Origin: Candidatus Dadabacteria bacterium
GTDB lineage: Bacteria > Desulfobacterota_D > UBA1144 > Nemesobacterales > CSP1-2
Assembly: GCA_040289575.1 (NCBI GenBank)
Contig: PSLL01000001.1
Coordinates: 64,919 to 89,801 of the forward strand
DNA: 24,883 bases
Direction of reading: 5' to 3'
Part shown: one piece after another, positions 4,496-23,261 of the stretch
Layout of the letters: every line of letters starts with the position of its first letter
Position numbering within the stretch: position 1 is the first letter of the stretch
Position numbers and translations under genes: made by a program
The notes under the pieces: generated by a model
Databases searched by the model: none
Told to the model about the DNA's origin: nothing
Seen by the model: the letters and a program-made list of their open reading frames with translations, nothing else

Positions 4496-4529
4496 TCTCT
4501 AAACCCAATTGTAAGGGGTCGACAAAATT

Positions 4530-6440: not shown

Positions 6441-6583
6441 TTTTCTTCATTCTCTTCTTCACTGGCTAGGTTTTTCTCTAATAGCTCGGCAACATCTTCA
6501 TAATCCCCGCCAATATATGTTGTGTCGGGATCCTCGAGCATATCCACTAAGTCTTTTATCTTCTTTCGCCCCTTTCTAGGCAT
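6413..6583 (-). CDS. Small hypothetical protein (56 aa), basic N-terminus and acidic C-terminus
   Basis: GGAGG SD 8 nt before ATG 6583: MPRKGRKKIKDLVDMLEDPDTTYIGGDYEDVAELLEKNLASEEENEENQENKEGEE. Overlaps the mnmG 3' end by 28 nt. Confidence 0.6.
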   Translation of the reverse strand: MPRKGRKKIKDLVDMLEDPDTTYIGGDYEDVAELLEKNLASEEENEENQENKEGEE

Positions 6584-6758
6584 TCTGATTTCCTCCCTCA
6601 AATTCGCATACGCTTAGATTAAACAATAGCTTCAATCCCCACGCGACGGAGTTTAAGATTTATATAACTATTTCTATCAATACCGAAAAGTATAAGTACA
6701 AGTTTTTGAAAAGCAAGTGCACCAGATTGTTGTTTGTATAGGTTAGATTAAATTTTCA

Positions 6759-6786
6759 TTGACAAAACCGAGGTACTCCGTAAATT
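6759..6786 (+). promoter_or_regulatory. Putative sigma70 promoter upstream of the lipoprotein gene
   Basis: TTGACA (6759-6764), 16 nt, TAAATT (6781-6786). Confidence 0.45.
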
Positions 6787-7007
6787 GATAGGAGAAAATG
6801 ATCGGACAGAGTGGAAGACGGCTTTTTGAGCTAGGGTTTAAAGATCAGACAGGAATGTCTGATGGCTCTCTATGAGACTGGTTGATTATATTTGTATGAT
6901 CTATGAACAGGAAAATAGGCACAACGGTTGGTTATACCTATTCCTTATTCTTCAAGGCTCTATATCAAGTTCGCTTTAAGGATAATGCCGATAGAAGGAG
7001 GATGGTC

Positions 7008-7955: not shown

Positions 7956-7981
7956 AAATGCTAGGAATTGAGGATCTCGGC

Positions 7982-8010
7982 TGTCATTCTGAGCTGAGGG
8001 TGAAGAATCT
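7982..8010 (+). repeat. Half-copy of a REP-like intergenic repeat (TGTCATTCTGAGC...GAAGAATCT type)
   Basis: TGTCATTCTGAGCTGAGGGTGAAGAATCT just after the stop at 7955. It resembles a widespread miniature palindromic repeat family (from memory). Single copy in the window. Confidence 0.5.
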
Positions 8011-8157
8011 TCTCCGTGCAAAATGTCTACATTTTTAATCAACAAACACCCGGATTTTATGTTATATTTTCCACAGAGTTTTTATATAACTTTAGGAAGA
8101 TTTTTTAACCCACTGATATTACTTGATTTTCTTTAAAAAATATTGAAAAATTCCCTC

Positions 8158-8186
8158 TTGACAGGCACAATATATTGTGGTTCAAT
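8158..8186 (+). promoter_or_regulatory. sigma70 promoter of nrdJ
   Basis: TTGACA (8158-8163), 17 nt, TTCAAT (8181-8186) with an extended -10 TG. The spacer is occupied by NrdR box 1. Confidence 0.65.
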
Positions 8187-8211
8187 CTGGGTACAGCACA
8201 ATATAGGGGCA
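8165..8211 (+). promoter_or_regulatory. Tandem NrdR boxes
   Basis: GCACAATATATTGTGG (8165-8180, perfect palindromic core) and GCACAATATAGGGGCA (8196-8211), 31 bp apart. Both match the acaCwAtATaTwGtg consensus and the canonical spacing upstream of an RNR gene. Confidence 0.9.
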
Positions 8212-8284
8212 TAGATTTTAGCTTAGAATTATCATAAGTAATTGAAGATAGATAGAACAAAACATAAAAAAGGAGGAGGGAGAG

Positions 8285-10840
8285 ATGGCTTCTGAGAAAT
8301 TTGGGATTGTAGAAGATAATGGAAAAACGACACTGAGTGGATCGGATATTGCGGATTGTATTTCGTCTGATCTTCAGCTACGTCTTCAAACACAAATCCC
8401 AAATCACGAATTTCAAGTATTAGAAGATGGGGTCAAGACGGTGGCAATTCATGAATTACCTGTAGAATATAAGGAAGGCATTATGGATATACCTCAGGAG
8501 GCGATTGATTTCTTTAGTGGGGATGAGTTACGTGCGAGGGTATTCTATGAAAAGTACGCCCTCCGCGATGAATCGGGCAGGATAATTGAAAAAACCCCAG
8601 ATGAGATGTGGCGAAGGGTCGCAAGGGAGATTGCTTCTCCTGAGAAGACGCAGAAGCTGAGGAAAGAGTGGGAGGAGAAGTTCTACTGGCTTCTCTCCGA
8701 TTTTAGGTTTATCCCCGGTGGGAGAATCCTCTTTGGCGCGGGCCAAAAGAGAAGGGCAACGCTACTCAATTGCTATTTCATTCCAATAAAAGAGGATTCA
8801 ATTGAGGCAATATTTGAGTGGTGCAAAGAGGCGGCAAGGACATATTCATTCGGCGGGGGCGTGGGAACCGATATTTCAATACTGAGACCCAAAGGCTCTC
8901 CAGTAAATAACTCCGCAATCTATTCGACGGGTGCCGTGTCTTTTATGGAACTTATGTCTACAACAACGGGAACAATCGGTCAGGCAGGGCGCCGCGGGGC
9001 TTTGATGATAACAATAGGCGTTGACCATCCTGACGTGATGGATTTTATTGACATAAAAAACGACCCTGCGAGGACAAAGGTCAGGTTTGCAAACATCTCC
9101 GTAAGGGTCACGGATGAGTTTATGAAGGCTGTGGAAGAGGACAGAGACTTTGAACTCAGGTTTGAAAATGATAAGGCAAAAATACGCAAAAGGATCAGGG
9201 CTAGAGACCTTTGGGAAAAGCTCATAAGATCGGCATGGGCTTCTGCCGAACCAGGGGTAATTTTCTGGGACACGGTAAAGAAGGGGTCTCCCACTGAGTA
9301 TAACGGAATGGAGATTCACGGATTCAACCCCTGCAGCGAGCAGGCATTGGAGGACTATGGAAACTGCTGCCTTGGAAATGTGAACCTCTCCCTTTTTGTG
9401 AGGGACGAGTTTACGGATAGAGCAGGGGTCGATTGGGAAAACCTGGAGTGCGCCCTCAGGTTCTCCGTTCGTTTTCTCGATAACGTTCTTGACTACAACG
9501 CCGATAAACATCCGCTCAAGGCTCAAACCGATGCGTCTCAGCACTCGCGTCGTATCGGCGTCGGGTTTACGGGTTTTGGCGATATGCTTCTTAAGCTCAA
9601 CCTAAAATACGATACACCGGAAGCCATTGAGTTTACGGATAAGGTGTTTGAATACATAAAGAACATCGCTTATGAGGCAAGCTCGGATCTTGCTTCTGAA
9701 AAGGGGAGTTTTCCTGCGTTTGACTTAGACATCCATTTATCAAGGCCATTTATAAGGATGCTCGGCGGGGGCGTAATTGAAAAGATAAAGAAGCAGGGGC
9801 TTAGAAATGCTTGCATACTCACGGTTCCGCCTGTGGGGAGTGGTTCAATCCTCGCGGGGACTACGAGCGGAATTGAGCCTATTTTTGCGCTTTCTTATTA
9901 CAGGCGTTCTAAATCCCTATCTCAAGAAGAGTTCAAGGTCTATCACCCGCTCGTAGGCGAATATATGAAGAGATTCGGTCTCCATGATGAAAGTGAGCTT
10001 CCTCCAACCATTATAACGTCGCATGAGATAAAGCCTGAGATGAGAGTGCGTATGCAGGCCGCGATTCAAAAACACATTGACTCGTGCATATCGAGCACCG
10101 TAAACCTTCCAACCGATATTACACCAGAAGAGGTTCAGAGGATTTATTTCCTCTCATGGAAACTCGGATGCAAGAGCATAACAGTCTATAGGGAGGGCTC
10201 AAGAGAAGGAATCCTTGTTACAGAGGAGGCATGGAAAAAGGGTAATGAAAAATCCGCGGTGAGCGCAGCCGCGCCGGAGCCTATGACCGGGGATGAAGGG
10301 GCGCAAAAACCCACCCCCATCTCGTCCCTTCGTCCCTCCCCTAGTGAGTCCAAACGAGTCGCCATGCCTGAGATTAAGCCTCTTAAGCGTCCTACTTATC
10401 TTGAGGGATTCACAGAGGTAATAAAAACGGGATACGGGAACCTATACGTTACCGTAAACACATATGAGGGGAGGCCTTTTGAGGTATTTGTTCAGATTGG
10501 AAAATCAGGATACACAACAATGGCAGATGCCGAGGCGATAGGGCGTCTTGCGTCCCTTGCACTAAGGAGCGGGATAAGCGTAAAGGACGTTGTAGAACAG
10601 CTTGAGGGGATAGGGGGGGCATCTCCAGTGTTTGCGGATGGAAAGCTCATTATGTCAATCCCCGATGCAATCGCAGCGGTTCTGAGAAAACACTTTATTG
10701 TCGGTAATGAAAAAGGGAAAACAAGACCAAAGGAGATTGACATAACAATGGAGCGCTGCCCCGACTGCGGTAGCCGTTCACTCGCATTTGAACAAGGCTG
10801 CGTTGTCTGCAAAACCTGCGGGTTTTCTAGGTGTGATTAG
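8285..10840 (+). CDS. nrdJ: Class II adenosylcobalamin-dependent ribonucleotide reductase with C-terminal TSCPD domain and Zn ribbon
   Basis: FIPGGRIL, LLNCYF, GRRGALM, NPCSEQ, CCLGNVNL, SGIEP, ISSTVNLP, TVYREGSR. C-terminal TGYGNLYVTVN...SIPDAIA and CPDCG...CVVCKTCGFSRC. No ATP cone and no adjacent beta subunit. Strong AGGAGG SD. Confidence 0.95.
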   Translation: MASEKFGIVEDNGKTTLSGSDIADCISSDLQLRLQTQIPNHEFQVLEDGVKTVAIHELPVEYKEGIMDIPQEAIDFFSGDELRARVFYEKYALRDESGRIIEKTPDEMWRRVAREIASPEKTQKLRKEWEEKFYWLLSDFRFIPGGRILFGAGQKRRATLLNCYFIPIKEDSIEAIFEWCKEAARTYSFGGGVGTDISILRPKGSPVNNSAIYSTGAVSFMELMSTTTGTIGQAGRRGALMITIGVDHPDVMDFIDIKNDPARTKVRFANISVRVTDEFMKAVEEDRDFELRFENDKAKIRKRIRARDLWEKLIRSAWASAEPGVIFWDTVKKGSPTEYNGMEIHGFNPCSEQALEDYGNCCLGNVNLSLFVRDEFTDRAGVDWENLECALRFSVRFLDNVLDYNADKHPLKAQTDASQHSRRIGVGFTGFGDMLLKLNLKYDTPEAIEFTDKVFEYIKNIAYEASSDLASEKGSFPAFDLDIHLSRPFIRMLGGGVIEKIKKQGLRNACILTVPPVGSGSILAGTTSGIEPIFALSYYRRSKSLSQEEFKVYHPLVGEYMKRFGLHDESELPPTIITSHEIKPEMRVRMQAAIQKHIDSCISSTVNLPTDITPEEVQRIYFLSWKLGCKSITVYREGSREGILVTEEAWKKGNEKSAVSAAAPEPMTGDEGAQKPTPISSLRPSPSESKRVAMPEIKPLKRPTYLEGFTEVIKTGYGNLYVTVNTYEGRPFEVFVQIGKSGYTTMADAEAIGRLASLALRSGISVKDVVEQLEGIGGASPVFADGKLIMSIPDAIAAVLRKHFIVGNEKGKTRPKEIDITMERCPDCGSRSLAFEQGCVVCKTCGFSRCD

Positions 10841-10888
10841 TGGTTGAGATGAAAGCAAACGCGAAGAGGTCTTTAGGCTGTTCGGTAT

Positions 10889-10926
10889 AAAAAAGTGGGA
10901 GTCTCCCACAATGGGAAGGCTCCCAC
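10889..10926 (-). terminator. Intrinsic terminator for the sigma factor gene (possibly bidirectional)
   Basis: Hairpin GTGGGAGTCTCCCA-caa-TGGGAAGGCTCCCAC (10895-10926) flanked by A6 (10889-10894), which is a U-tract on the minus strand. Confidence 0.75.
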
Positions 10927-11014
10927 AGCCAAAGAAGGGTAGATAACATTTTAGATGGTATTATCGGGCAATAGATTCGTTAGGGTAATAAGTATTTTTT
11001 TTTGAATTGGGTAT

Positions 11015-12124
11015 CTATTCGAGAAAGCTCTTTAGAACCTCTTCCGTATCCGCCTCTGCGAGCTTCTGGAGCGCGCTTCTTTCAATCTGTCTTATCCGCT
11101 CGCGTGTGAGATTGAACCTTTTTCCAATCTCATCGAGTGTATACGTGGTATCCTGGTCTATTCCAAATCTCAACCTGATTATCTCCTCTTCTCTAGGGGT
11201 GAGCTTCGAAAGAGCCTCTTTTATCCTCTTTGTAAGCGCCTCCTTTGCCACTGTGGAATCCGATGCTGGTGAGTCCTCATCGGGGACAAAATCGAGGAAC
11301 GTTGCTCCCTCTCCATTTGGTATGGGAGAGTCGAGATGAACCACGTCATTTTTTACATTAAGAATCCGCTTTACTACCTCAAGAGGAGTCCCCGATCTCT
11401 TAGCAATCTCCTCAGGGGTAGGTTTTCTTTCTAACTCCTTGCGAAGCGCCGCGCTTATCCTAAATACCTTGCTTGACTGCTCTAGCAGATATACGGGAAC
11501 CCTGATTGTCCTTGTCTGGTCTAAAAGCGCCCTTGACATTGCCTGATGTATCCACCACGAGGCGTAGGTTGAAAACTTGTATCCCTTTGTATGGTCGAAT
11601 TTCTCCACCGCCCTCATCAACCCGGCGTTTCCTTCCTGAACAAGGTCTGCAAGTGGAAGGTCCCGACCCATATACCTCTTTGCCATGCTCACAACCAGAC
11701 GCAGGTTCGCCTTTACAAACCTGCCCTTAAGCTCCTTCGCCTTCTCTATATAGGCCTTCATGAGTGCATTTAACCTCTTTATCTGCCTTTCTTTTCCCCT
11801 GCTTTTGCCGGCCTTATCAATAATCGCCTTTATCTCCTTTGCTCTTGCTTCACACTTCTTTATCTCCGCCGAGAGCCTTATTTCATCTTCCGGTTTAAGA
11901 AGGGACTCATGAGACATGTCCTTAAAGTAGGCGGAGAGCAGTCTGAGCTGCTCTTCAGGAGCCCAAAACTCCTCGTCAGAGGTTGGAGACTCAGATCCTT
12001 CAATCTCAATCTGAGACTCTCCGTCTATTGGAATAAGCTCCTCAAATCCCCCTTCCCGGGCAAAATCCCCAAACTCATCCGGCTCTAAATTCATTTCTTC
12101 AAAGTCTATGTTTTTTACTTCCAT
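11015..12124 (-). CDS. RpoD/RpoS-family sigma70 factor, non-primary (no region 1.1)
   Basis: ANLRLVVSMAKRY, DLVQEGNAGLMRAVEKFD, KFSTYASWWIHQA, RTIRVPV, TLDEIGKRFNLTRERIRQIE; 369 aa. Confidence 0.95.
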   Translation of the reverse strand: MEVKNIDFEEMNLEPDEFGDFAREGGFEELIPIDGESQIEIEGSESPTSDEEFWAPEEQLRLLSAYFKDMSHESLLKPEDEIRLSAEIKKCEARAKEIKAIIDKAGKSRGKERQIKRLNALMKAYIEKAKELKGRFVKANLRLVVSMAKRYMGRDLPLADLVQEGNAGLMRAVEKFDHTKGYKFSTYASWWIHQAMSRALLDQTRTIRVPVYLLEQSSKVFRISAALRKELERKPTPEEIAKRSGTPLEVVKRILNVKNDVVHLDSPIPNGEGATFLDFVPDEDSPASDSTVAKEALTKRIKEALSKLTPREEEIIRLRFGIDQDTTYTLDEIGKRFNLTRERIRQIERSALQKLAEADTEEVLKSFLE

Positions 12125-12399
12125 TCCTTCACCCTTTCTTAATTCTCCTCCTAAATGTTTAGATTAAAATTGGGCAATATAGGATTCTCTTTAGTGAAAA
12201 GTATCTCCGGAGAGACTTCCATATATCTAGCCCGCCGATTCCTCTACCCCTATAGTACTAAACTAATCATTCGGACACTAGTTTCAAGGTTAAAAAAATC
12301 TAAAAAACTAAGCGGTTATAATTAAATACAGAATAAAATATAGAATTAGTTTCGCCATTGGTACCTATGTATAATATAGCGTAATTATAGGAAAAATCA

Positions 12400-13155
12400 A
12401 TGAAAAATTCTATGTGGAGATTATTTATGAGACTAAAACGAGAGACTGTATATTTAGGGCCTATACTTTTCTTAATCTCAATTACCGGATGTGTGTATCT
12501 GCATCTCTTAGAGGTTAGGAGGCAATTATCTAGTTTTGAGAATAACTTTGAGATTAGGGATCAAAACGGGCTTACGCTTGTATTTCTAAACCCAGTTCTT
12601 CTTACCGAAGACATTATATGGCTTACGGAAATCGGTCCAACATATGAAGAAGAAACAGGCCATGGCAGGCTGTGGAGATACATATTTGAAAAACAGTATC
12701 CAGGTCCGAGGGATGAAAAGGGGGACTTTGATATACCTATCATAATGCTTTTTCAGGGGAACGATAGGCTCCGCGAGGTCAGATTTCCGGAGCGGTTTCT
12801 TGAGTTTGTGTCAAAGCCGCTGCTTATAAGGATGTTCAAGTCAATGGGATACTCTCAAATAAGCAAGCTCAGACGCAGCGCAACATCGAAATTTGAGGGC
12901 AGCTCAATGGAGATTCCAAGAAGGCAATTTATACTCAAGGTTCTGGGCAAGCCCTTTAACATAGAAAATTCCGATCATACATCAAGGCTTGTATACAGAT
13001 ACAATCTCAAAAAAGGAAAACCTGCCGATAGGGGTTTCAATATACTGATTAATTTCACATTTCAACAAGGAGACGATAAGCTCCGCAAAGCCGAGGGCAA
13101 TATCGGAGATATGAGGCTTTTTATGGATTTTTCAGTTGAGGGATCGGACAGATGA
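12400..13155 (+). CDS. Hypothetical lipoprotein
   Basis: 251-aa ORF, hydrophobic stretch ending SITG-C. ATGA overlap with ispE. Exact start uncertain (12400/12412/12427). Confidence 0.7.
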   Translation: MKNSMWRLFMRLKRETVYLGPILFLISITGCVYLHLLEVRRQLSSFENNFEIRDQNGLTLVFLNPVLLTEDIIWLTEIGPTYEEETGHGRLWRYIFEKQYPGPRDEKGDFDIPIIMLFQGNDRLREVRFPERFLEFVSKPLLIRMFKSMGYSQISKLRRSATSKFEGSSMEIPRRQFILKVLGKPFNIENSDHTSRLVYRYNLKKGKPADRGFNILINFTFQQGDDKLRKAEGNIGDMRLFMDFSVEGSDR

Positions 13156-14015
13156 ACTCTATCACCCTCCTTTCGCCGGCCAAGATTAATTTAACCCTTG
13201 AAGTTCTCGGGAAGAGACCCGACGGATATCACGAAATCAGGTCAATTGTACAACCCGTAAACCTGTTTGATGAGGTGAAGATTGACATAGAGAATGGGGA
13301 AGGAATCGAAATTAAATCTACGGGACTTGAGATTCCAATAGGGAAGGAGAATCTCGCCTGGAAGGCGGCTGATGTCTTTCTAAAAGAGAGCGGGCTGAAT
13401 CTCAATGTGGAGATTTCTATAAAGAAGAGAATCCCGCTTGGCGCCGGACTCGGCGGCGGAAGCGGCAATGCCGCGGCGGTTCTTGTGGGTATGAATAGGA
13501 TTACAAAAAGATTCGGTGAAAATGAGCTTATCCAGTTTGCGCCTAAAATTGGGGCAGACGTTGCACTCTTTATCAATTGCCGGAGCGCCTTAATTGAGGG
13601 GATAGGAGAGAAGGTAACACTTATAAGGGACTTTCCCTTCTTTTACTATGTTCTTTTAAACCCCGGGTTTGAAACCTCGACAAAGAGAATTTATGAATTA
13701 TGGGATGAGATAGCAAAGGAGGATTCAATAAGAACAAGTATTGAGGATACGATCTCCCTTTTTAAAGATGGGCGATTTCCACTGAGGAATGATCTAGAGA
13801 AACCGGCTATGCATCTTTACAGGGAGATAAGATCACTGAAGGATAGACTGGTCGGTATGGGTGTAGAGGCGGTGTCAATGACCGGAAGCGGTTCTACAGT
13901 TTTTGGGGTTTTTGGAGACGGAGGAGTGGCAAAGAAGATCTATGACTACATGAAAGACAGCGGTATGTTTAGGACCTTTCTCGCTCAGGGAATCTCCGGA
14001 TGGCATAGGCTGTGA
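13152..14015 (+). CDS. ispE: 4-diphosphocytidyl-2-C-methyl-D-erythritol kinase
   Basis: SPAKINLTL, RPDGYHEI, KRIPLGAGLGGGSGNAAA, IGADV, NDLE, MTGSGSTVFG. Confidence 0.97.
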   Translation: MNSITLLSPAKINLTLEVLGKRPDGYHEIRSIVQPVNLFDEVKIDIENGEGIEIKSTGLEIPIGKENLAWKAADVFLKESGLNLNVEISIKKRIPLGAGLGGGSGNAAAVLVGMNRITKRFGENELIQFAPKIGADVALFINCRSALIEGIGEKVTLIRDFPFFYYVLLNPGFETSTKRIYELWDEIAKEDSIRTSIEDTISLFKDGRFPLRNDLEKPAMHLYREIRSLKDRLVGMGVEAVSMTGSGSTVFGVFGDGGVAKKIYDYMKDSGMFRTFLAQGISGWHRL

Positions 14016-14178
14016 GTTCATGTTGAATTTGGTATCTACCAATATATAAATTTGCCTCACATAGAAAAGCTTGGTAGGATTTTAGCGAAATTTGTAGGGC
14101 AAATCTTGTATTATTTGCCCAAAACTCAGAATTGGGCAGTTATGTATATTATCCAGCGCGGTGTGCACGTAATTATAT

Positions 14179-14252
14179 TGGGGCGTCGTCTAACGGCAGG
14201 ACTCGGGCCTTTGGAGCCCGCTATGGTGGTTCGAATCCACCCGCCCCAGCCA
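14179..14252 (+). tRNA. tRNA-Gln (anticodon TTG), CCA encoded
   Basis: Acceptor TGGGGCG/CGCCCCA, anticodon arm CGGGC-CTTTGGA-GCCCG, T arm GGTGG-TTCGAAT-CCACC, discriminator G plus CCA. Typical position after ispE. Confidence 0.98.
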
Positions 14253-14361
14253 ATAAAAGAAGAGGGAATTTTATATTTATCTGACATATAAGAACAGTTT
14301 ATTCCTTGAAAATCGGCTTCTAGTGATTAATTTAAGAATAAAAGAGATACTTAGGAGCAAG

Positions 14362-14598
14362 ATGATGGATAGGCAATTTAGTGGTTACACAGCTACACAA
14401 ACAGAAAACGGTTTTCATGTGGTGTTTCATGATTCTCAAAGAACCCCGCTAGATATAACCTTTGATAATTTTCAAGAATTTGCTAATAAATACAATAGGG
14501 AGCTTATGTCTGGAAAAGCACCAAGGCTCTCGGATAAAGAAGAGGTTTTACTCTCACTTTTGCAGATGATGCTCATTCCAGGCAACACGATACACTAG
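14362..14598 (+). CDS. Small hypothetical protein (about 78 aa)
   Basis: AGGAG SD before ATGATG at 14362/14365: MMDRQFSGYTATQTENGFHVVF...LLQMMLIPGNTIH. No recognisable family. Confidence 0.65.
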   Translation: MMDRQFSGYTATQTENGFHVVFHDSQRTPLDITFDNFQEFANKYNRELMSGKAPRLSDKEEVLLSLLQMMLIPGNTIH

Positions 14599-14748
14599 AA
14601 TATATCTCATAGCAGGGACAGGCAAGTACTCCTAAATACGGTGAGTTGTATATTTCCCCTCAATAGCCCTTTATGAGGCTGTTTCTAGCCGATGTATCTA
14701 CCCGATTCATCTAGTTTATTGACTTCTTCCGAGAACAGGACAATACCT

Positions 14749-15315
14749 CTATAACTGTCCTTTATATCGTTTTCTATACCATCGTCCTAAGAAGATAAAA
14801 GGCGTGATCAATACAATTTCAAGAATGATTGTACCAATGTTATATAGATCAATCATACTCTTGATTCATTCTAGAATGGACGCAGATGGTGAGCCAGTAT
14901 GATGAACACCTAAAAACAACTGTACCGGAGAGATGAAATTTTCCCTAATTATTAGCCGAAACATAGGTATACGGGGTGGATGTCTGTAAGGGGTGGAAGG
15001 GCCGAAGAAATCAATGACCACATGTGAGAGATATGAAATGAAACATAGACTGAATATCAATGAAAACGGCTTCATTCTGATACTAAGGAGTTCGGCTATT
15101 ACCATACTTGCCATAAGGGCAAAACCTAGGCTGTGCGTAATTCCGTGATGGTACAGCTCCGGCCTACCTATTAGAATGCCGGGGAGAAAATCCAAGTCCG
15201 GGGCAGCTGCCATGAATATACACAGAGAGGCCAGCCTAAGCCGATTACGGTTTGTTGATGCCGCGGAGAATTTATAGACCGCATAGCCCGCTAAAGAGTG
15301 TCCAATGGGAGTCAC
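14749..15315 (-). pseudogene. YdjM-like membrane metal-dependent hydrolase with premature TGA
   Basis: TPIGHSLAG, APDLDFLPG, HHGITHSL, SHVVIDFF motifs. The frame continues past TGA (14868-14866): SILE*IKSMIDLYNIGTIILEIVLITPFIFLGRWYRKRYKGQL to TAG at 14749. Confidence 0.8.
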
Positions 15316-15470
15316 TTAGGAAATTCTCCGAGATTTTAAGAGTTCGGTTGCTCTATTCCTATACGTGATAGGAATGAAAGAAGATAAAAGAAATTAACAC
15401 ACCGGGTATGACAAGGCAAATGTAGTGAAATTAACTATTAAAATTTGCTTGGGTCTTGTCTGCTTAGCCC

Positions 15471-15498
15471 TTGACATGTATAAAATATAGGCTATATT
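15471..15498 (+). promoter_or_regulatory. Putative sigma70 promoter of pcrA/uvrD
   Basis: TTGACA (15471-15476), 16 nt, TATATT (15493-15498). Confidence 0.5.
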
Positions 15499-15672
15499 CG
15501 ATGCAAGGAATTTCCCCAAATATTTTTCTAAGCTTATAAAAGTAATTAATATATTACAGTCCTTATGGTATAGGCAGCAGGGAGGAATAAAAAGGAATAA
15601 AAACTATACCTCTATTATTATATCTTATCCCTTTTGTCTATTACCATATATCAGGGATGGAGGATTAATTAA

Positions 15673-17850
15673 ATGGAGTTCAATATCTTGGATGATCTTA
15701 ACCCTTCTCAAGCAGAGGCCGTTTCGCATCCCGAGGGACCGCTTCTTGCCCTTGCAGGGGCGGGTTCGGGAAAAACGAGGGTGATAACCTATAGAATCGC
15801 CTATCTGATTAAGGAAAGAGGAATCCCACCCGCTAATATTTTAGCCGTAACGTTTACAAACAAGGCTGCAAATGAGATGAAAGAGAGGGTGCACCGCCTT
15901 GTCGCACGCGACGCGCACGAGTTGTGGATAGGGACCTTCCACTCGGTATGCTTAAGAATTCTCAAAAAGGAGATAGACAAACTCGAGGGTTTTAGAAGGG
16001 ATTTCATAATATACGACGAGGTTGATCAAATAAAACTCATAAGGCAGTGCATGAATGACATAGGGTTTAGCGATCGTATATTCGATCCAAGGTCTGTCCG
16101 CTCTCAGATAGATTCCGCTAAAAATAGGGGACTTGATCCTGGGGATTTTGGGGCGAATATATATGACGAGAAGATTTCTAGGGTTTATCACATATATGAA
16201 AAGGAACTGAGGCGACAGAATGCACTAGACTTTGGAGACCTTCTCCATTTCACAGTTGTGCTTTTTGAGAAGAGGCCGGATGTGCTTGAGAGGTATCAAA
16301 ACCAGTTCCAACATATCCTTGTAGACGAATATCAGGATACGAACTATCTTCAGTATAAAATCGTAAAATCGCTTTCCGGAAAGCATAGAAACATATTCGT
16401 TGTAGGCGACGACAATCAATCAATATACGGATGGCGCGGCGCGGACATATCAAACATTCTCAATTTTGAGAATGACTTCCCTGAGGCAAAGGTCGTAAAG
16501 CTTGAGCAGAACTATAGATCGACCAAGAATATTCTCAGGGCTGCAAATGCGATAATTCTCAGAAACAGATACAGACGCGACAAAAGACTCTGGACGGAAA
16601 ACCCTGATGGCGAGCTTGTGACATACTACGAGGCCCGCGACGAGAGGGATGAAGCCAAATACGTCGCCTCTTGTATAGAATACGAAAAGAACAATTTTGG
16701 AAAATCATACTCGGATTTTGCCGTATTCTACAGGACGAATAATCAGTCGCGTTTAATAGAAGAAGAGCTTGTGCATAGGGGAATTCCTTACACAATTGTG
16801 GGAGGAGTGGGTTTTTATGAACGGGCTGAGATAAAGGACATTATGGCTTATCTGAGGGTCATAGCCAATCCGCTCGATGAGATGAGCATAAGACGCATAA
16901 TCAATGTTCCGCCGAGGGGTATCGGAAAGAACACAATGGATGCACTTGAGAGAATATCTCAAGAGAGGGATGTCTCTATGTTTGATGCCATAGGGATTGC
17001 TCTAAAGGATGGTGTTCTCCCCAAGAAGGCCGCCGGGAGCGTGGAGAGGTTCTATAGACTTCTTAATGAGCTTATAAGGTTCTCAAAAAGACTGCCGATT
17101 GGAAAACTCCTTGAGAGGATTCTTGAGAAGACGAATTACATTGAGATGATTGAAAACGAGGAAGAAAGACGCCAGAACATAGGAGAGATGTTGAACCTTG
17201 CCGCTGAGTTTGAAAAGGAAGAAGGCGATGCAGACATCCATGACTTTCTTGACTGGCTTACGCTCTCAAGCGATGTCGACAGGTTCAATGAAAAGGCTGA
17301 TCAGGTTACCCTTATGACGCTTCATTGTGCTAAGGGGCTTGAGTTTCCAATAGTCTTTATTGTAGGGATGGAGGAAAATCTCTTTCCCCATATTAAATCG
17401 CTGGGAATTGGAAAACTGATAGAAGAAGAAAGAAGGCTTTGCTATGTGGGAATCACAAGGGCAAAGGAGAAAATCTATATTACAAGCACATCTAAAAGGA
17501 GATTCTTTGGAGTCGAGCAAAGGTCAATCCCTTCGAGATTTATAACCGAGATTCCAAAGAAGCTTCTCCATTGGGGAAACTATCAAATGGATCCTGCAGA
17601 ACAGACTAATAGGGGTTCTAATGACTCATCTCGTCATTATGCCAATGGCAACAGTCAACACAGCAGAGTCTATAAGAATGGAGATGTGCATCAATACATA
17701 ACAGGACAAAAGGTAACACATCCCCATTTCGGGCAGGGGGTAATAAAAAGGGTAGAGGGATTTGGCGATGAGGCGAAAATCGTTATCTCTTTTCCCAACC
17801 ACGGCGAGAAAAGGATTATTGCGAGCTTTCTCGGGCTTAAAAAGGCTTAG
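15673..17850 (+). CDS. pcrA: ATP-dependent DNA helicase PcrA/UvrD
   Basis: LAGAGSGKTRV, AVTFTNKAA, VDEYQDTN, VGDDNQSIYGWRGA, LEQNYRST, MTLHCAKGLEFP, EERRLCYVGITRA, C-terminal Tudor-like V.HP.FGQG. GGAGG SD. Confidence 0.97.
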   Translation: MEFNILDDLNPSQAEAVSHPEGPLLALAGAGSGKTRVITYRIAYLIKERGIPPANILAVTFTNKAANEMKERVHRLVARDAHELWIGTFHSVCLRILKKEIDKLEGFRRDFIIYDEVDQIKLIRQCMNDIGFSDRIFDPRSVRSQIDSAKNRGLDPGDFGANIYDEKISRVYHIYEKELRRQNALDFGDLLHFTVVLFEKRPDVLERYQNQFQHILVDEYQDTNYLQYKIVKSLSGKHRNIFVVGDDNQSIYGWRGADISNILNFENDFPEAKVVKLEQNYRSTKNILRAANAIILRNRYRRDKRLWTENPDGELVTYYEARDERDEAKYVASCIEYEKNNFGKSYSDFAVFYRTNNQSRLIEEELVHRGIPYTIVGGVGFYERAEIKDIMAYLRVIANPLDEMSIRRIINVPPRGIGKNTMDALERISQERDVSMFDAIGIALKDGVLPKKAAGSVERFYRLLNELIRFSKRLPIGKLLERILEKTNYIEMIENEEERRQNIGEMLNLAAEFEKEEGDADIHDFLDWLTLSSDVDRFNEKADQVTLMTLHCAKGLEFPIVFIVGMEENLFPHIKSLGIGKLIEEERRLCYVGITRAKEKIYITSTSKRRFFGVEQRSIPSRFITEIPKKLLHWGNYQMDPAEQTNRGSNDSSRHYANGNSQHSRVYKNGDVHQYITGQKVTHPHFGQGVIKRVEGFGDEAKIVISFPNHGEKRIIASFLGLKKA

Positions 17851-17869: not shown

Positions 17870-18205
17870 CTACCGCCCCTTTATCTCCAATCTACTCGCA
17901 TCCACGTTTTTGATTCTATATTCCTTTCCATCTATTACTACCTTGGTGTTCTCGGCTATCTTGATTGCCTTTTCTTTCTCATCGCTGGATTGTGCTCTGC
18001 CAGTAAGACTGACATTCAAATCTTTGGTTTCGACATGTAACTCGACCGATATGTTCTCTTTAAAGAATTCTTCCCTTATGGCTTTGGTAATTTCAAAATC
18101 TGCATGCGCCTGATTAACGTTGTCTTTATTCCTATGACAGCCGGTAGGTATCAATGGGGTCGAGAAGATAACCATCAGGATTATTGCCCTTTTAGACCTC
18201 TCCAT
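17870..18205 (-). CDS. BON-domain (OsmY-like) putative lipoprotein
   Basis: Signal peptide ending PTG-C. DFEITKAIREEF...LHVETKDLNVSLTGRAQSSDEKEKAIKIAEN is the BON pattern. AAGGAGG SD. Confidence 0.8.
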   Translation of the reverse strand: MERSKRAIILMVIFSTPLIPTGCHRNKDNVNQAHADFEITKAIREEFFKENISVELHVETKDLNVSLTGRAQSSDEKEKAIKIAENTKVVIDGKEYRIKNVDASRLEIKGR

Positions 18206-18227
18206 TTTGTTGGGTCCCTCCTTAATG

Positions 18228-18614
18228 TTATCCGTGCTGTATATTTAATTTGGTTTTTGAGACCTCTACAAGCAGCTGCTCTACACTTATCTTCTCCGGG
18301 TGCATTGGTATTTGCATGGAAGCGACCACAATCTCTTGCGTGCCCTGTCTTCTCTTGACACTCAGCTTAAAGTCGGCGTCAATCTTTATCCCATTTTCTA
18401 CAATCCCTATGTGTAAAGGGTTCGTGGCTTTGAGGTCTATCTCATATGTAGCCCATATATCTTTGATGAGTTTGTCAACGATTGTCTGTATCTGATCCAG
18501 ATTTTCAGAAAAGGTTTTTTGAATGAGCTCCCTTATTTGATTTCCCAGCGCCGGTCCAAAATTAGAGCACAAGTCTTTTACAATACTACCTAAAAACCCT
18601 TGTGTGTCTGGCAT
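18228..18614 (-). CDS. Hypothetical protein (IGxVENGIxID family, copy 2)
   Basis: 128-aa ORF with AAGGAG SD. Shares a motif with the upstream small gene. Confidence 0.75.
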   Translation of the reverse strand: MPDTQGFLGSIVKDLCSNFGPALGNQIRELIQKTFSENLDQIQTIVDKLIKDIWATYEIDLKATNPLHIGIVENGIKIDADFKLSVKRRQGTQEIVVASMQIPMHPEKISVEQLLVEVSKTKLNIQHG

Positions 18615-18676
18615 TTCTATTTTCTCCTTTGGAAGGGATTTAATAAATGCGCAACTATCTAAACGGTCTTTTAGGA

Positions 18677-18900
18677 TTATTTCTTTGAAGAGAAGTCAAT
18701 TGGTATTAGGAGTCCGCCGATTTTGACCCTGGATTGGTTGGTAAGGGTTATGAAAAAATCGTTTTATTGAAGATTGTAGCCCTGATAAGCGGGTCAATGA
18801 CAATCCCATTTTCTACGAATCCGATTCTTATGTTTCCGTCTATCTGTGTTTCGTAACTCTCAATCAGTTCCCCCAATATGTCTTTTACAATTTCACCCAT
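18677..18900 (-). pseudogene. Small hypothetical protein (IGxVENGIxID family, copy 1), probably frameshifted; not in the ORF track
   Basis: AAGGAGGTG SD then ATG 18900: MGEIVKDILGELIESYETQIDGNIRIGFVENGIVIDPLIRATIFNKTIFS* (stop 18748). Adding one base in the A6 run (18753-18758) extends it with ITLTNQSRVKIGGLLIPIDFSSKK* to 18677 (74 aa). Confidence 0.65.
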
Positions 18901-18941
18901 GAAAGACACCTCCTTCTATATTGTATATCGTATGCCTTTTT

Positions 18942-20632
18942 CTAAACGCCCTTCATAATAATCCTTTCCGCAATCCTTTCCCCCAGCGCTCCGATTATCT
19001 TTGAAGGGTTGGGCCCCAGAGCCGAAGGCACAATTGAGCCATCGGCCACATACAGATTCGGGTAGTTGAAAACCTGCCCGTCCGCGTCAACAACCCCCTT
19101 TGTATCATCATCCCCCATAGGACATCCGCCCAAAGGATGCACTGTAATTAGGTGTTTCTGAGCCGACCATATAGGGTTCAACATCAAATTGCCGTCAAGC
19201 CCCGGCCTGGGAGCCTCGGTTATTTCTCGAAGTGTCCTCTCTATTTCTCTAAAAAGTGACATACTATGGGTGTGATTCCAATTAATCTCAAGATCCCCTT
19301 CATCGTCTATTGACATCTCCCCATCGGCGGCATCAATGCCCATTACTAAATAAGGGAGGTTATCTCTTACTGCGTCAAAATCCATCTGCTTAAGGAGTTG
19401 ATTAAAGATTCCCTCAATTAACCTATCACTTCCACCCATATTAAAAATCCCCTTTAGTGTACGCAGCCATTTGCGTCCGGAGGCATACCCGCCTGAGGTT
19501 CGCCTCAAATACGCCCTGAGTATATCTGGGAAGCCGCCGTCTTCTACAATAAATCCGTGCTCGCCGAGCTTATCGCGGTAATCTATCGTTGCGGTTATTG
19601 TAGGGCCGGTCATAGGGTTTACGGTGCGATTGGTTTCAAACCCGACTGCTCCGAAATCGCCGTTTCCTGAAAAATACCTCCCTAGCATATCGCTCAAATT
19701 GGGCAGTGTAGGGGCCATTTTCTTCCGACCGATTCTATATCCGTGTTTACACCTGAGTAGAAGCTCGGTAGACCCTAATGAACCGGCAGACACGATGAGT
19801 GTTTTTGCCGATACCGTTCCTGAGAAATTCCATCTCAGGTCCTCATAATGGACTGTATAGCCTTTAGGATGGATGGGATGGTCATCGGGGTTCTGCTCGA
19901 TTTTTACTACATTATTTTGAGAATATACCTCGGCTCCGGCTTTGACTGCGAGCCAGAGATAATTCAGATCGAGTGTATTCTTAGAATGCGTGTTGCAGCC
20001 GATAAAGCACTCGCCGCAATAGGCGCACCCAATCTGAGGGGGCCGCCTCGGCCATAGGGGTCTTTATTTAAGATCCCCTTTTCACCTCCGTTTTTTCCCC
20101 AGTAGATTGCCAGGTCAAGGAGCCTGAACCTGTCGGATGCCTCCACTCCATCGGCGGTCGCCTTTAATGCCAACGTCTTCAGAGGGGGGTCTGGTATTGG
20201 GCTGGGCCTGAGCATATTAAAAACCCTCTCATAATACCTGGGCATCTCCTCATGCCAGTTGACAGAACTGGGCCAGCGTTTTTGACCCTCTGGGCCCACT
20301 ATATCAAATGTTGATTTAAAGGCATCTATCTGAACATCTAGATAGACAAGGGAGGTTCCTCCCACCCCGCTTCCAACCATCACACTGATGTTGTTAAATG
20401 ACCTGAATTCCAAAAGCCCCTTCCATCCCCCTTTTCCGCCATCCCGCCACCACCAGTCCTTTGGCTTTGACAGATTTCTTGGAAACTCGCCCATGTGATA
20501 ACGCTTTCCGCGCTCAATCACACAGACAGAGACCCCTTTCCCCGCCCTTTTCTGGGCCTCCGCCAGACGACACGCCGTGACGGAGCCGCCGAAACCGGAG
20601 CCGATTATAACCACATCATAATATCGCTTCAT
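18942..20632 (-). pseudogene. GMC-family flavin oxidoreductase, cholesterol oxidase (ChoD)-like, single frameshift
   Basis: DVVIIGSGFGGSVTACRL, ERGK, GSGVGGTSLVY. Adding one base in the G5 run (20038-20042) gives GGPPQIGCAYCGECFIGCNTHSKNTLDLNYL...IVSAGSLGSTELLLR, continuous with ORF 18942..19793 (FSGNGD, TVHPLGGC, LYVADGS, GPNPS). About 563 aa. Confidence 0.9.
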
Positions 20633-20682
20633 TATGTGTCCTCTTCTAAAAGCATATAGGGTTGTTCGCCTTCAATTGCTTT

Positions 20683-21072
20683 TCATCTACCAGTCTTTTT
20701 GGCAAAATCGAGAAACATTCCAAATAATGCGGCAAATATCAGATCGCCTATGACTGGAATCAGGAAGAATAGAGGAACCTGTCCCCTGAGTGTTATCATG
20801 TTGTATATGAATATAATTGCAAAGGCCATCTTGCCTATTATCCCCAATATGACGATGTTTTTATTCCCATACATGTCCCTGTAAACCATATAATACCCAA
20901 TGCCGAATGTGACGAAGAGGGCAATCCATGAATGGAAATATGCAGGCGGCTGAGGCGGAGTCAGATTGGCTGTAGAGAATATCCATACGGCAAAAAGTGT
21001 GATAAATGCCCCTCCGACAATATTCCATAGTGCTCCGATTAAAAACACCCTTTTATAGAAACTCTCGTTCAT
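20683..21072 (-). CDS. Small integral membrane protein (about 4 TM)
   Basis: 129 aa with four hydrophobic segments (FLIGALWNI, FGIGYY, ILGIIGK, IGDLIFA). Tight operon spacing. Confidence 0.85.
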   Translation of the reverse strand: MNESFYKRVFLIGALWNIVGGAFITLFAVWIFSTANLTPPQPPAYFHSWIALFVTFGIGYYMVYRDMYGNKNIVILGIIGKMAFAIIFIYNMITLRGQVPLFFLIPVIGDLIFAALFGMFLDFAKKTGR

Positions 21073-21093
21073 TTTCTGCCTGCTGTGATATGA

Positions 21094-22350
21094 TTAAATA
21101 TGCGCATACTCGCCATATCCTCTTCCGCTTATGGTTTGTCCTTTGTATGTACCTTCGTAAGAGAAATTATAGTAGATCATGTTGCTTGAAATAGAGGCCG
21201 GGGGCCACTCTCTTTTTCCCGTGTATTCAAAGATTCCATCATCCATCACCGCCCTTACATGCCACCTCTTATAGAGTCTTACAGACGGTTTCCCCCGACA
21301 CTCGGCATCCACAATGTCAGTCTCGGGGTCGTCGAGATACTTGATCCTTACACTTTTGATCTCCCTATATGCGCCGTTTATATAAACTCCCCCTCGGTTT
21401 CGAAAATCTATTCCGAATCCCCTTGCATGAATGAAACCGCCCTGATGGTTATTATCACCGATGAACAACTCGTAATGGTATCGGATTGGTTTAAGAGAGG
21501 GGAAGAGGTTTTCTAACCATACGATGGGCAGCCAGAATCTGTCGAAATCAAACGGCTTGCGGGCAAAACCGTGCTCAAAACAACCCCTTCCATTGATTGA
21601 ATAAGTCTCCTCTTTATCGGTTAACTTATGAATATCGCTCCTTCTTGTCCTTCTTTTATACGTTATCTTTCCATACAGTTTTCCGAATGCCGCAAAATAG
21701 GTAAAAAATTCAGGAACATCCGCCCACCAGATTATGCTCTCTCCGTTGTAATGGAAGGTGAGGCTAATATCCGATTCTGGATTAGTAAATTGAAATTCAT
21801 AGTTTGGCCATGCGCCAGTGATTCTGCCGTATAGTTCCATCTCATTATCGCTTTTAGCCTTAACGCCAGTTATAGAAACGTCCAGTTTCTTATGGTCAAT
21901 ATTTAGGTCTGTTTTCTTCGTCATGTAATTATGTGAGAGGTTGTTTTCCCTCTCCTCTTTTCCGTTGATTTCCTCCTCTGTCGGGATTAGTGTGAGATGT
22001 TCAACCGCTTCAAATGTAGATAGTCTAAGGAGGAGCTTTTCATAGCTGTCTATGCCCTCAAGTCCATAGAGGCCGGTCATAATGCTTGCCCGAATCATCT
22101 TAACGGGGATATTTCTGTCTTCGGGAACCATAAAAAAATACCACCCGTCCCAGCCTGGCCATCGGACTCCGGTATCCACTTCGCCGTGTTTATCCAATTT
22201 GAAGTATCTGGGCAACTCGTATTCTTTGGATAGAGAATCTCTATTGTTGACTAAAGAGCGGTCAAAGAATCTGTATACCCAGAGTGAATTGAATCTGATA
22301 ATGAGGTAAAAAAGGACAAGAACTATTATGACTATGGCAAGAATTGTCAT
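21094..22350 (-). CDS. Membrane-anchored hypothetical protein, possibly AttH/CrtC/tocopherol-cyclase-like beta-barrel
   Basis: 418 aa, N-terminal TM helix, aromatic beta-rich body, WDGWYF near the N-terminus, internal INGRGCFEH and terminal ISGRGYGEY (duplicated barrel-end motif). The fold call is inference. Confidence 0.7.
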   Translation of the reverse strand: MTILAIVIIVLVLFYLIIRFNSLWVYRFFDRSLVNNRDSLSKEYELPRYFKLDKHGEVDTGVRWPGWDGWYFFMVPEDRNIPVKMIRASIMTGLYGLEGIDSYEKLLLRLSTFEAVEHLTLIPTEEEINGKEERENNLSHNYMTKKTDLNIDHKKLDVSITGVKAKSDNEMELYGRITGAWPNYEFQFTNPESDISLTFHYNGESIIWWADVPEFFTYFAAFGKLYGKITYKRRTRRSDIHKLTDKEETYSINGRGCFEHGFARKPFDFDRFWLPIVWLENLFPSLKPIRYHYELFIGDNNHQGGFIHARGFGIDFRNRGGVYINGAYREIKSVRIKYLDDPETDIVDAECRGKPSVRLYKRWHVRAVMDDGIFEYTGKREWPPASISSNMIYYNFSYEGTYKGQTISGRGYGEYAHI

Positions 22351-22365
22351 TTCATCCCCTTATTA

Positions 22366-22928
22366 CTACCAGGTGTCTAAGTGTCTTCCTTTCCTTCTCA
22401 GTTTAAAGAAAAAGATAAGGAGCGCAACACTCCAGACTATGAGCGTGAAGATCAACATGAAAAGGAATGTGCGGTCTTGATAGAACCATAGGGCTGTGCC
22501 CGATTTCCATTTGGCATAGCTTCCCAGATGAAACGTGCGGTCTATCTGTTCAAAGATCCAAACCGCCGAGTAGATGAAGATTGCAATGTATATGATCCTA
22601 TTTGCTACAATGTGTCCATTCTTGACCAGCCAATATCCCAGTAGAAATCCTCCATTTCCGGCCAGGAAAAAACCACTATAAATATTGGGAGATAGTATGG
22701 GTATGTGGTCACAGAATCCGCGTACCACCACATGTGCGTGGTTTCCCAGCCAAAGTAGTTGAGTAGGAAGTACACGGGAATCCAGCTAAAGAAAAATATC
22801 TGATAGATGTTGTTTTTAAGAAGCGATTGGTAGTAATACTCTGGCCTGCCAGTTTGGAGTTGCTTGTGTGCGGCATCGGCAAAGATGGTTCCTATGGCAA
22901 ATGCGACTGGAACGTCAATCTGCACCAT
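22366..22928 (-). pseudogene. Polytopic membrane protein (about 187 aa), single frameshift
   Basis: GAGGTG SD then ATG 22928: MVQIDVPVAFAIGTIFADAA...FGWETTHMWW...IFIVVF. Adding one base in the A6 run (22667-22672) joins it to FLAGNGGFLLGYWLV... of ORF 22366..22731. Confidence 0.8.
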
Positions 22929-23078
22929 GTTACACCTCTCTGTTGAATGTGATATGGACTTATATAAAACCTCCCCAATCCGACCTGTCTGCAATGTGAA
23001 GACGAGAACTGATTCCCCAGGACAGAGCCTTGTATAGCGCTTACCAATGCACCAGACTCACATTAATATAAACATATT

Positions 23079-23095
23079 TGCAAGCCCTATGCCAG
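23079..23095 (-). promoter_or_regulatory. sigma54 (-24/-12) promoter
   Basis: The minus strand reads CTGGCATAGGGCTTGCA, i.e. TGGCAY-N5-TTGCW with exact GG-N10-GC spacing, 150 nt upstream of ATG 22928. Confidence 0.8.
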
Positions 23096-23144: not shown

Positions 23145-23261
23145 TGTAAAAAGGGTTTACATTATTCTATTGTGGAATTTAATAAGTAGTTGAAGACATT
23201 GGGTTTTTATCAATATCCAGCATATAAAAGGGAGTCTACACTGCGTTAATAGAGTCTACAC
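23145..23261. promoter_or_regulatory. Candidate upstream activator sites
   Basis: Palindrome TGTAAA-aaggg-TTTACA (23145-23161) and exact direct repeat GAGTCTACAC at 23232-23241 and 23252-23261. Confidence 0.5.

Follow-up and report, generated by a model that had tools for sequence, protein, structure and literature searches.

A conserved four-gene cassette pairing a putative AttH/CrtC-fold protein with a cholesterol-oxidase-like flavoenzyme in a Candidatus Dadabacteria contig and in other bacterial lineages

A stretch of 24,883 nt from a Candidatus Dadabacteria bacterium (assembly GCA_040289575.1, contig PSLL01000001.1, positions 64,919 to 89,801), called here the window and numbered from its first nucleotide, carries seven co-oriented minus-strand genes that run from 22928 down to 17870, as judged from the list of open reading frames (ORFs) and a three-frame translation. 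An earlier note, made from the sequence alone, had proposed them as a candidate sigma-54-driven, envelope- or lipid-modifying operon built around a cholesterol-oxidase-like enzyme. The question raised by this locus is which of its genes belong together and what they might do. The genes are designated, from first to last, g1, g2, g3, GMC (for a flavoenzyme of the GMC family), par1, par2 and BON; the gaps between them, recomputed from the coordinates, are 15, 21, 50, 41, 62 and 22 nt, and their content and order are those which the note had given. The first four recur as a unit in several phyla, and the reading preferred here, held with slightly less than even confidence, is that they encode a cytoplasm-facing, O2-independent module that would modify a hydrophobic, probably isoprenoid, membrane lipid.

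Four genes that recur across phyla

A profile search with g2 in one genome per GTDB species yielded 36 loci, against which the window proteins were then run by tblastn. Just upstream of g2, g1 was found in 33 of the 36 loci and is absent from three, while g3 lies just downstream in 31, two of the others being interrupted by contig ends and three lacking the gene. Downstream again, GMC was detected in 29 loci, with six ending at a contig boundary and one lacking it. All four genes are present and co-oriented in 26 loci, and six others are cut by contig ends. The conserved unit is the four-gene cassette g1-g2-g3-GMC, and the co-occurrence elsewhere on which the earlier note had staked its proposal is found for these genes in several phyla; the seven-gene operon does not hold as a conserved entity, only its first four members being recurrent. 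Flanking genes differ between loci, which indicates that the cassette travels as a self-contained unit.

According to the record titles, the loci belong to Terriglobia, Bryobacterales and Solibacteraceae (Acidobacteriota), to Dadabacteria, to Desulfobaccales, Syntrophaceae and Thermodesulfobacteriota, and to Brocadiia, together with two relatives of the window, L001 and L002. These last two are labelled Spirochaetia and Ignavibacteriales, respectively, yet display 84-91% protein identity to the window over both cassette and flanks, and at least one of the labels is doubtful.

Scans of the flanking ORFs revealed no recurrent isoprenoid, sterol, hopanoid, carotenoid, polyketide, lipid-biosynthesis or transporter gene. 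The sterol-, hopanoid- or isoprenoid-like substrate that the earlier note had put forward thus gains nothing from the neighbourhood, since no gene for such a biosynthesis recurs beside the cassette. The recurrent neighbours, which were identified by scanning one representative per ORF cluster with Pfam and by assigning the other loci through BLAST clustering, are further redox or hydrolytic enzymes. They comprise an ene-reductase of the Old Yellow Enzyme (OYE) type in L008, L009 and L015, a FAD_binding_4 oxidase in L002, L006 and L022, and a second GMC protein or a GMC-alpha/beta-hydrolase fusion in 12 loci. In 11 of the 36 loci (L018, L020, L022, L023, L024, L026, L027, L029, L030, L033 and L036) the cassette is accompanied by calcineurin-like (Metallophos) phosphoesterases, which fall into three or more unrelated types and could point to a phosphorylated substrate or intermediate.

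A variant arrangement was observed in Bryobacterales (L026, L027, L036 and also L021), in which a larger cluster (ca. positions 1-16500) lacks g1 and g3. It contains a GMC-hydrolase fusion, a RoxA-like cytochrome c, a Metallophos protein, an unassigned 482-aa protein, g2 and GMC, the remaining genes encoding a 1391-aa protein with no Pfam match, a BON ORF and an unassigned protein of 279-297 aa.

The barrel protein, the flavoenzyme and the two membrane proteins

The g2 gene (21094..22350, minus strand) is intact and encodes a 418-aa protein with an N-terminal transmembrane helix and a predicted double beta-barrel. Neither this product nor those of g1, g3, par1 and par2 matched a Pfam or NCBIfam family above threshold (E up to 0.1), and the rows that did appear, for a g1 fragment DUF3487 at 0.053 and for par2 an exodeoxyribonuclease VII model at 0.046, are at the level of chance and far under the curated cut-offs. 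For g2 itself no Pfam match was obtained at E up to 0.1, the CrtC (PF07143) and Lipocalin_9 models included. When 26 members of its family were scanned at E up to 10, nine gave weak matches to DUF6670 (best E 0.0046) and no other relevant match was seen. A total of 239 g2 homologues were detected; among the 120 listed, none has a Pfam domain and the names given are all "hypothetical protein".

The structure of g2, in contrast to its sequence, has recognisable relatives. An AlphaFold2 (AF2) model based on the alignment of the 26 homologues, with a mean predicted local distance difference test (pLDDT) of 89.3 and a predicted template modelling score (pTM) of 0.88, was compared with the PDB by Foldseek. 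Matches with a probability of 1.00, which include 2ich, 7a0t, 9g4c and 7e5t, span E values from 1.9e-10 to 2.2e-7 overall: the fungal Diels-Alderases Fsa2, Phm7 and relatives at 1.9e-10 to 1.6e-9, with Fsa2 the best, followed by the AttH protein NE1406 (2ich) at 2.5e-9, 25-phosphosteroid lyase at 4.9e-9 and kievitone hydratase at 1.5e-7. Template modelling scores (TM-scores) range from 0.41 to 0.60 at a sequence identity of 8-12%, the higher target scores (0.57-0.60) being those of bacterial AttH and hydratase structures. In the ESM Atlas, the neighbours of g2 are CrtC/Lipocalin_9 (score 0.94), DUF6670, Diels-Alderase and Svf1 clusters. The AttH/CrtC-like barrel of the earlier note is therefore borne out at the level of the fold by the AF2 model, Foldseek and the Atlas, and not by a sequence model. 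On this structural prediction g2 adopts a two-domain, lipocalin-like AttH/CrtC fold; it represents a family that has no sequence model and a new branch of the AttH fold. Its invariant polar and aromatic residues include D68, D211, E259, H260, Y291, Y293, E294 and E414; the catalytic residues of CrtC are His, Tyr and Asp.

Those members of the AttH/CrtC fold that have been solved or assayed protonate or hydrate double bonds of the isoprenoid type, catalyse the reverse loss of water, add or eliminate phosphate, or carry out a cyclisation. Enzymes of this fold, such as the carotenoid 1,2-hydratase CrtC, kievitone hydratase, archaeal Hgs, 25-phosphosteroid lyase, Fsa2 and Phm7, have the same two-barrel arrangement as g2 and all act on hydrophobic, mostly isoprenoid substrates; one of them, the hydroxylated glycerol dialkyl glycerol tetraether (hydroxy-GDGT) synthase Hgs, modifies membrane lipids according to a preprint (bioRxiv 10.1101/2025.10.20.683597). 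Unlike them, g2 combines the lack of a Pfam CrtC/AttH match and an identity of only 8-12% with an N-terminal membrane anchor, and it is linked to g1 in 33 of the 36 loci and usually to g3 and GMC, an association for which no precedent with this fold was found in the open-access and bioRxiv literature covered.

Since the top Foldseek matches of g2 are decalin-forming Diels-Alderases (Fsa2, Phm7 and relatives) and the Atlas lists Diels-Alderase and Svf1 clusters, g2 and GMC might be thought of as a secondary-metabolite tailoring pair, in which a Diels-Alderase-like pericyclase and a flavin adenine dinucleotide (FAD) oxidase would modify a polyketide or terpenoid whose synthesis is encoded at another site of the genome. 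We regard this as very unlikely. No polyketide synthase, nonribosomal peptide synthetase or terpene synthase was met with in 119 flanking ORF scans, a single ketoacyl synthase being located in L035 on the opposite strand; furthermore, the cassette is shared by very different genomes and is anchored in the membrane, and it is the bacterial AttH and hydratase structures that give the higher target TM-scores.

The GMC gene (18942..20632, minus strand) encodes a GMC-family FAD oxidoreductase that is cholesterol-oxidase-like and is frameshifted in the window, where the fragments match Pfam GMC_oxred_C (1.5e-18) as well as DAO and NAD_binding_8 (residues 5-48). For both fragments the best NCBIfam match is the cholesterol-oxidase model (102.9 and 64.4 bits). 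The intact orthologue of L002 (573 aa) matches GMC_oxred_N (2.4e-7) and GMC_oxred_C (3.9e-18) and aligns over its full length with NF058674 at 207.2 bits, which is below the equivalog cut-off of 850 bits; the best solved relative is a Streptomyces cholesterol oxidase (1.9e-22). The FAD-binding motif GSGFGGS lies at the N-terminus, and the HPLGGC and GPNP motifs of the L002 protein, both of which are found in the C-terminal fragment of the window, align with those of Streptomyces ChoA; they would hold the His/Asn pair, whose active-site numbering we take to be His447/Asn485. Judged by sequence, the FAD fold, the N and C domains and this pair place the protein in the GMC family, as cholesterol-oxidase-like rather than as a cholesterol oxidase orthologue. 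To that extent the label of the earlier note agrees with Pfam, NCBIfam and the alignment of the ChoA motifs, and homologues bear the automatic name "cholesterol oxidase" at JGI. Compared with the class I cholesterol oxidases (Streptomyces ChoA and mycobacterial ChoD-like enzymes), with which it shares the full-length model alignment, GSGFGGS, HPLGGC and the NP motif, the GMC protein is ca. 70 residues longer than ChoA (573 aa versus 499-510 aa), has no secretion signal and is part of a membrane-protein cassette; its hosts include anaerobes and organisms for which no handling of sterols is known.

That the closest named model and the closest solved structure are both those of cholesterol oxidase suggests a module, inducible through sigma-54, for the breakdown or detoxification of sterols or terpenoids taken from outside. 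In it GMC would produce the 3-ketone in the manner of cholesterol oxidase, an enzyme that oxidises and isomerises 3-beta-hydroxysterols, and the AttH-like protein would be a side-chain lyase or hydratase like those of anaerobic cholesterol degradation. The 25-phosphosteroid lyase among the fold matches of g2 (4.9e-9), the OYE/BaiCD-like ene-reductase inserted in three loci and the Metallophos phosphoesterases near the cassette in 11 of 36 all fit such a module. On the other hand, no transporter, kinase, beta-oxidation or ring-cleavage gene recurs beside the cassette; the GMC score of 207 bits is far under the 850 bits required of an equivalog, autotrophic anammox lineages are among the carriers of the cassette, and both enzymes look cytoplasmic and membrane-tethered. 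This explanation is therefore considered unlikely.

The first gene, g1 (22366..22928, minus strand), is preceded by a GAGAGGTG ribosome-binding site, starts with MVQIDVP and encodes a polytopic membrane protein of ca. 187 aa that is frameshifted in the window. It is the most conserved member of the cassette: the 20 other homologues in the alignment, those of Brocadiia among them, match the L002 protein at 49-77% identity. The alignment displays 37 invariant columns, among them D5, D18, E62, R111 and an FGWETTH motif; the WET motif pointed out in the earlier note (W61, E62, T63) is invariant in 21 of 21 homologues. The AF2 model of the L002 orthologue comprises five long helices (pLDDT 81.8) and had no PDB match with E <1 by Foldseek, nor did an ESM Atlas search return a named family among its neighbours. 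The third gene, g3 (20683..21072, minus strand), is intact and encodes 129 aa forming four hydrophobic helices, with W16, N17, K81 and D110 invariant. Both g1 and g3 belong to no described family. A prediction of a g1-g3 complex gave a score of 0.00 and a mark of 0.32, values that carry no weight on either side of the question of binding.

No fusion of g1 to a longer protein emerged from a search for such forms, which is rated as weak evidence. A 607-aa ORF of L015 that might have been a g1-g2 fusion was rejected because its g1 matches fall in another frame, and the c15 protein encoded upstream of g2 in Bryobacterales, in the position of g1, reached an hhalign probability of only 0.2 against the g1 profile.

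The presence of two small membrane proteins beside a flavoprotein, in a cassette that occurs in anaerobes, recalls a membrane-bound dehydrogenase of the respiratory type, in which GMC would be the catalytic subunit, g1 and g3 a quinone-reducing anchor, g2 a lipocalin-like accessory protein or chaperone, and the substrate a small soluble alcohol or sugar. The GMC family includes quinone-linked choline, alcohol and sugar dehydrogenases, and weaker matches of the GMC protein to such enzymes are in line with this proposal. We nevertheless judge it distinctly unlikely, as the many invariant polar residues of g2 (D68, D211, E259, H260 and E414) suit an enzyme better than a passive carrier, as three loci hold g2 and GMC without g1 or g3, and as the best relatives of GMC are sterol-directed and not sugar- or choline-directed.

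Promoter, broken frames and additional genes of the window copy

Upstream of g1, ca. 150 nt from its ATG, lies a sigma-54-type -24/-12 element (23079..23094, minus strand; TGGCATAGGGCTTGCA) that is an exact TGGCAT-N5-TTGCA. It shows GG at -24 and GC at -12 at the fixed spacing of the pattern used, TGGCAC-N5-TTGCW, and is the sole exact match in the window to TGGCAY-N5-TTGCW; transcription would start near 23067. When one mismatch is allowed, two occurrences were counted against 1.32 expected, and at least two were obtained in 37 of 100 shuffles, which is not above chance. The promoter call carries weight because the match is the only exact one, because it is in the right position and because it is kept in the two closest relatives: in a three-way upstream alignment of the window, L001 and L002 (65% mean identity), the TGGCAT...TTGC columns are invariant. 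The sigma-54 promoter announced by the earlier note is thus present as an exact match but is confined to these three sequences and not found cassette-wide, as the element reaches nine of ten consensus positions in them only and eight at most in all other loci.

Two further blocks were detected upstream of the promoter. A repeat search revealed a direct repeat pair GAGTCTACAC (23232-23241 and 23252-23261, minus strand; GTGTAGACTC on the operon strand) whose copies are spaced by 20 nt, ca. 140-180 nt upstream of the -24 element; the pair is largely kept in L001 and L002 and may be an activator-binding site. Between these repeats and the promoter, an inverted repeat TGTAAA-N5-TTTACA (23145..23161, minus strand) read from the sequence is exact in L001 and partial in L002, and is a candidate regulator or integration host factor (IHF)-type site. 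Taken together, the conserved TGGCAT...TTGC block, the inverted repeat and the GTGTAGACTC pair have, by their sequence, the layout expected for an activator-dependent promoter.

A histidine kinase and a sigma-54 activator (Sigma54_activat 6e-74) are encoded ca. 2.3 kb downstream of the cassette in L035, from Brocadiia (13485-16050), although the region preceding g1 there yielded no sigma-54 motif.

As the earlier note had stated, three members of the operon are frameshifted. In comparison with the intact L002 genes, g1 lacks one T from a T-run near 22675 and GMC lacks one base at a C-run near 20043, while par1 lacks 13 nt near 18766 when compared with L001. The note had called these members frameshifted in this assembly; the two 1-nt homopolymer deletions look like sequencing error, the 13-nt deletion does not, and the nearest relative is truly decayed. 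Outside the operon, an O-methyltransferase gene (864-1855, minus strand) is a fourth broken gene of the window: it is split between a dimerisation domain (1454-1855) and a Methyltransf_2 domain (864-1424), with the break adjoining a T8 run. Ratios of non-synonymous to synonymous substitution (dN/dS) between the window and L002 are 0.05-0.11 for every cassette gene and 0.097 and 0.047 for the flanking def and CBS genes, respectively. As these values are as low as those of the neighbouring def and CBS, any inactivation of the cassette genes must be very recent, selection having acted on them up to that point.

The nearest relative, L001, in which the neighbouring UvrD is intact and 91% identical at the protein level, carries heavier damage in its operon (positions 1-4700). 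A 4-nt insertion affects g1, deletions of 14 nt and of 106+23 nt affect GMC, and a stop codon ends the g2 frame at ...FDFDRF where the window continues with W; only remnants of par1 and par2 are left and there is no BON gene. Loss of the cassette is thus under way in one or more members of the window lineage. The dN/dS values between the window and L001 are slightly raised, at 0.13-0.16 for g2 and g3 versus 0.089 for UvrD.

Whether the operon is, in the window genome only, a dying remnant without function has to be considered in this context, and we take this to be a serious possibility that nonetheless leans towards the doubtful. The frameshifts in g1, GMC and par1, the different and larger lesions of L001 and the dN/dS values of g2 and g3 against UvrD all speak for it. 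On the other side, two of the three lesions are 1-nt homopolymer deletions and the O-methyltransferase break lies beside T8, as would be expected if the sequencing were at fault; the dN/dS values obtained with L002 are no higher than those of housekeeping genes, and the promoter is intact. The window copy has either been inactivated recently or carries homopolymer sequencing errors.

Downstream of GMC, par1 (18677..18900, minus strand, with an approximate 3' end) has a broken frame whose present stop lies at 18748 and encodes a small protein of no recognised family, while par2 (18228..18614, minus strand) encodes 128 aa and belongs to a very rare family, with five matches at E up to 0.001 among 1.84 billion representative proteins. 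The two had been called paralogous; a similarity between them is detectable but weak (15 identities in 45 positions, E 2e-4). The last gene, BON (17870..18205, minus strand), encodes a protein of 111 aa in which the N-terminal segment resembles a signal peptide and residue 23 is a Cys; its BON domain, recognised in the earlier note, is above the Pfam gathering score (8.4e-8; 32.8 bits versus 27). Compared with the lipobox [LVI][ASTVI][GAS]C, its ...STPLIPTGC has a fitting G at -1 and T at -2, with an atypical P at -3. The BON family has a lipid-binding role; with lipoproteins of the OsmY/DolP type the window protein shares the Pfam BON domain and the signal-peptide-like N-terminus with Cys, but it is a single-domain protein of 111 aa located outside the conserved core. 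By tblastn over the loci, par1 and par2 were found only as remnants in L001, and BON had no match in any locus, so that these three genes are lineage-specific. A BON ORF of similar size closes the extended Bryobacterales cluster in four loci, with 26% identity to that of the window (E 4e-6), a resemblance that weakly hints at a recurrent association. The "envelope" label of the earlier note suits the putative BON lipoprotein but not g2 and GMC, which probably face the cytoplasm.

The few distant relatives of par2 (145-165 aa) have additional copies of an internal helical repeat (...F..LIKD...) ahead of the conserved C-terminal part. Elsewhere in the window, ca. 14 kb from the operon, a 121-aa protein of the SCP2 sterol-carrier type is encoded at 4062-4427 (minus strand; Pfam 2e-24). 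At 2733-3827 (minus strand) there is a radical S-adenosylmethionine protein that resembles spore photoproduct lyase (SPL) and has a C-terminal Mrr_N domain; as its SPL profile match begins at position 78 of 338, its N-terminus may be missing.

A possible lipid-modifying module

Under the preferred reading, g2 would be tethered by its single N-terminal helix with the barrel on the cytoplasmic side, where it would add or remove water at a double bond of the lipid. GMC would act on the same hydrophobic substrate by turning a hydroxyl into a carbonyl, which is the oxidation carried out by GMC enzymes. As strict anaerobes are found in several of the host lineages, its electrons would probably go to quinones of the membrane pool and not to O2. 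The integral-membrane proteins g1 and g3 might act as partners that present the lipid or accept electrons, and the substrate would most likely be an endogenous isoprenoid-type membrane lipid. In the window genome and its two nearest relatives this cassette would be expressed from the sigma-54 promoter, to which the window would add two rare small proteins and a putative BON lipoprotein. The location of g2 and GMC on the cytoplasmic face is suggested by the positive charges that follow the g2 helix (R19, R27, R31 and R37) and by the lack of a signal peptide in GMC. The gene order, its conservation, the folds, the motifs, the promoter footprint and the lesions are seen in the data, and the topology, the order of reactions, the class of substrate and the role of g1 and g3 are what we infer.

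A hydratase-plus-dehydrogenase route to O2-independent oxyfunctionalisation is known from BchF/BchC in bacteriochlorophyll synthesis. The cassette follows a similar logic, also that of Ted/Hgs, in that it would pair a water-adding with an alcohol-oxidising enzyme and that its hosts include strict anaerobes. It differs from these systems in its protein families, and action on one shared carbon finds no support, the AttH-type products reported so far being tertiary alcohols. The preprint mentioned above reports that an AttH-like protein hydrates double bonds of archaeal membrane lipids (bioRxiv 10.1101/2025.10.20.683597). The parts of the operon come from known superfamilies (GMC, the AttH/CrtC fold and BON), and by analogy the chemistry implied would be a familiar hydratase- or lyase-plus-dehydrogenase tailoring of lipids. 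In the open-access and bioRxiv literature covered, the gene combination was not found described, in agreement with the earlier note, which had recognised no named pathway of this composition. One apparent report of "AttH" together with "cholesterol oxidase" (PMC4943939) was a false lead, as "ATTH" there is an accession prefix, and PMC12324291 mentions cholesterol oxidase only among the functions correlated with hopanoid producers.

Several observations weigh against a lipid-modifying module of this kind. The AttH-like hydratases are reported to yield tertiary alcohols (bioRxiv 10.1101/2025.10.20.683597); since a GMC enzyme cannot oxidise a tertiary alcohol, a simple hydration followed by oxidation at one carbon is unlikely, and the two enzymes would have to act at different positions, unless g2 performs lyase or cyclase chemistry instead. 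The best Foldseek matches of g2 are fungal Diels-Alderases with TM-scores of only 0.41-0.60 and no CrtC/AttH sequence model applies, and the assignment of the substrate is indirect, its class being deduced. The cassette is not invariable either, as L026, L027 and L036 of Bryobacterales hold g2-GMC without g1 or g3 and L028 has no GMC. In the window itself, three genes are broken and the L001 operon has decayed, so that the module may be non-functional there. A sigma-54 promoter needs a cognate AAA+ enhancer-binding activator besides rpoN, and none of the 28 window ORFs scanned has a Sigma54_activat domain or otherwise encodes such an activator.

A bolder version of the preferred reading, which we hold to be unlikely, is that g1-g2-g3-GMC constitutes a widespread and so far unrecognised apparatus that works without O2 and introduces hydroxyl or keto groups, or a ring, into an isoprenoid lipid abundant in the membrane. 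This lipid would be, for example, a hopanoid or a squalene-derived, polyprenyl or quinone lipid; an intramembrane enzyme of a new kind, with D5, D18, E62 and R111 as its active site, would be represented by g1, and the hosts would be Acidobacteriota, anammox bacteria, Dadabacteria and Desulfobacterota. If this were true, orphan lipid biomarkers found in the environment might originate from its products.

The lineages that host the cassette (Acidobacteriota, Brocadiia, Dadabacteria and Desulfobacterota) are abundant in soils, sediments and wastewater and yield lipid biomarkers for which the tailoring enzymes are mostly uncharacterised. Even if the cassette were to encode a dehydrogenase complex for a soluble substrate, it would still represent a new membrane-anchor architecture for GMC enzymes. 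Being compact and under strong purifying selection, it offers a clonable target for finding new O2-independent lipid modification, and work on it would give names to three unannotated protein families, of which g2 alone accounts for 239 detected homologues.

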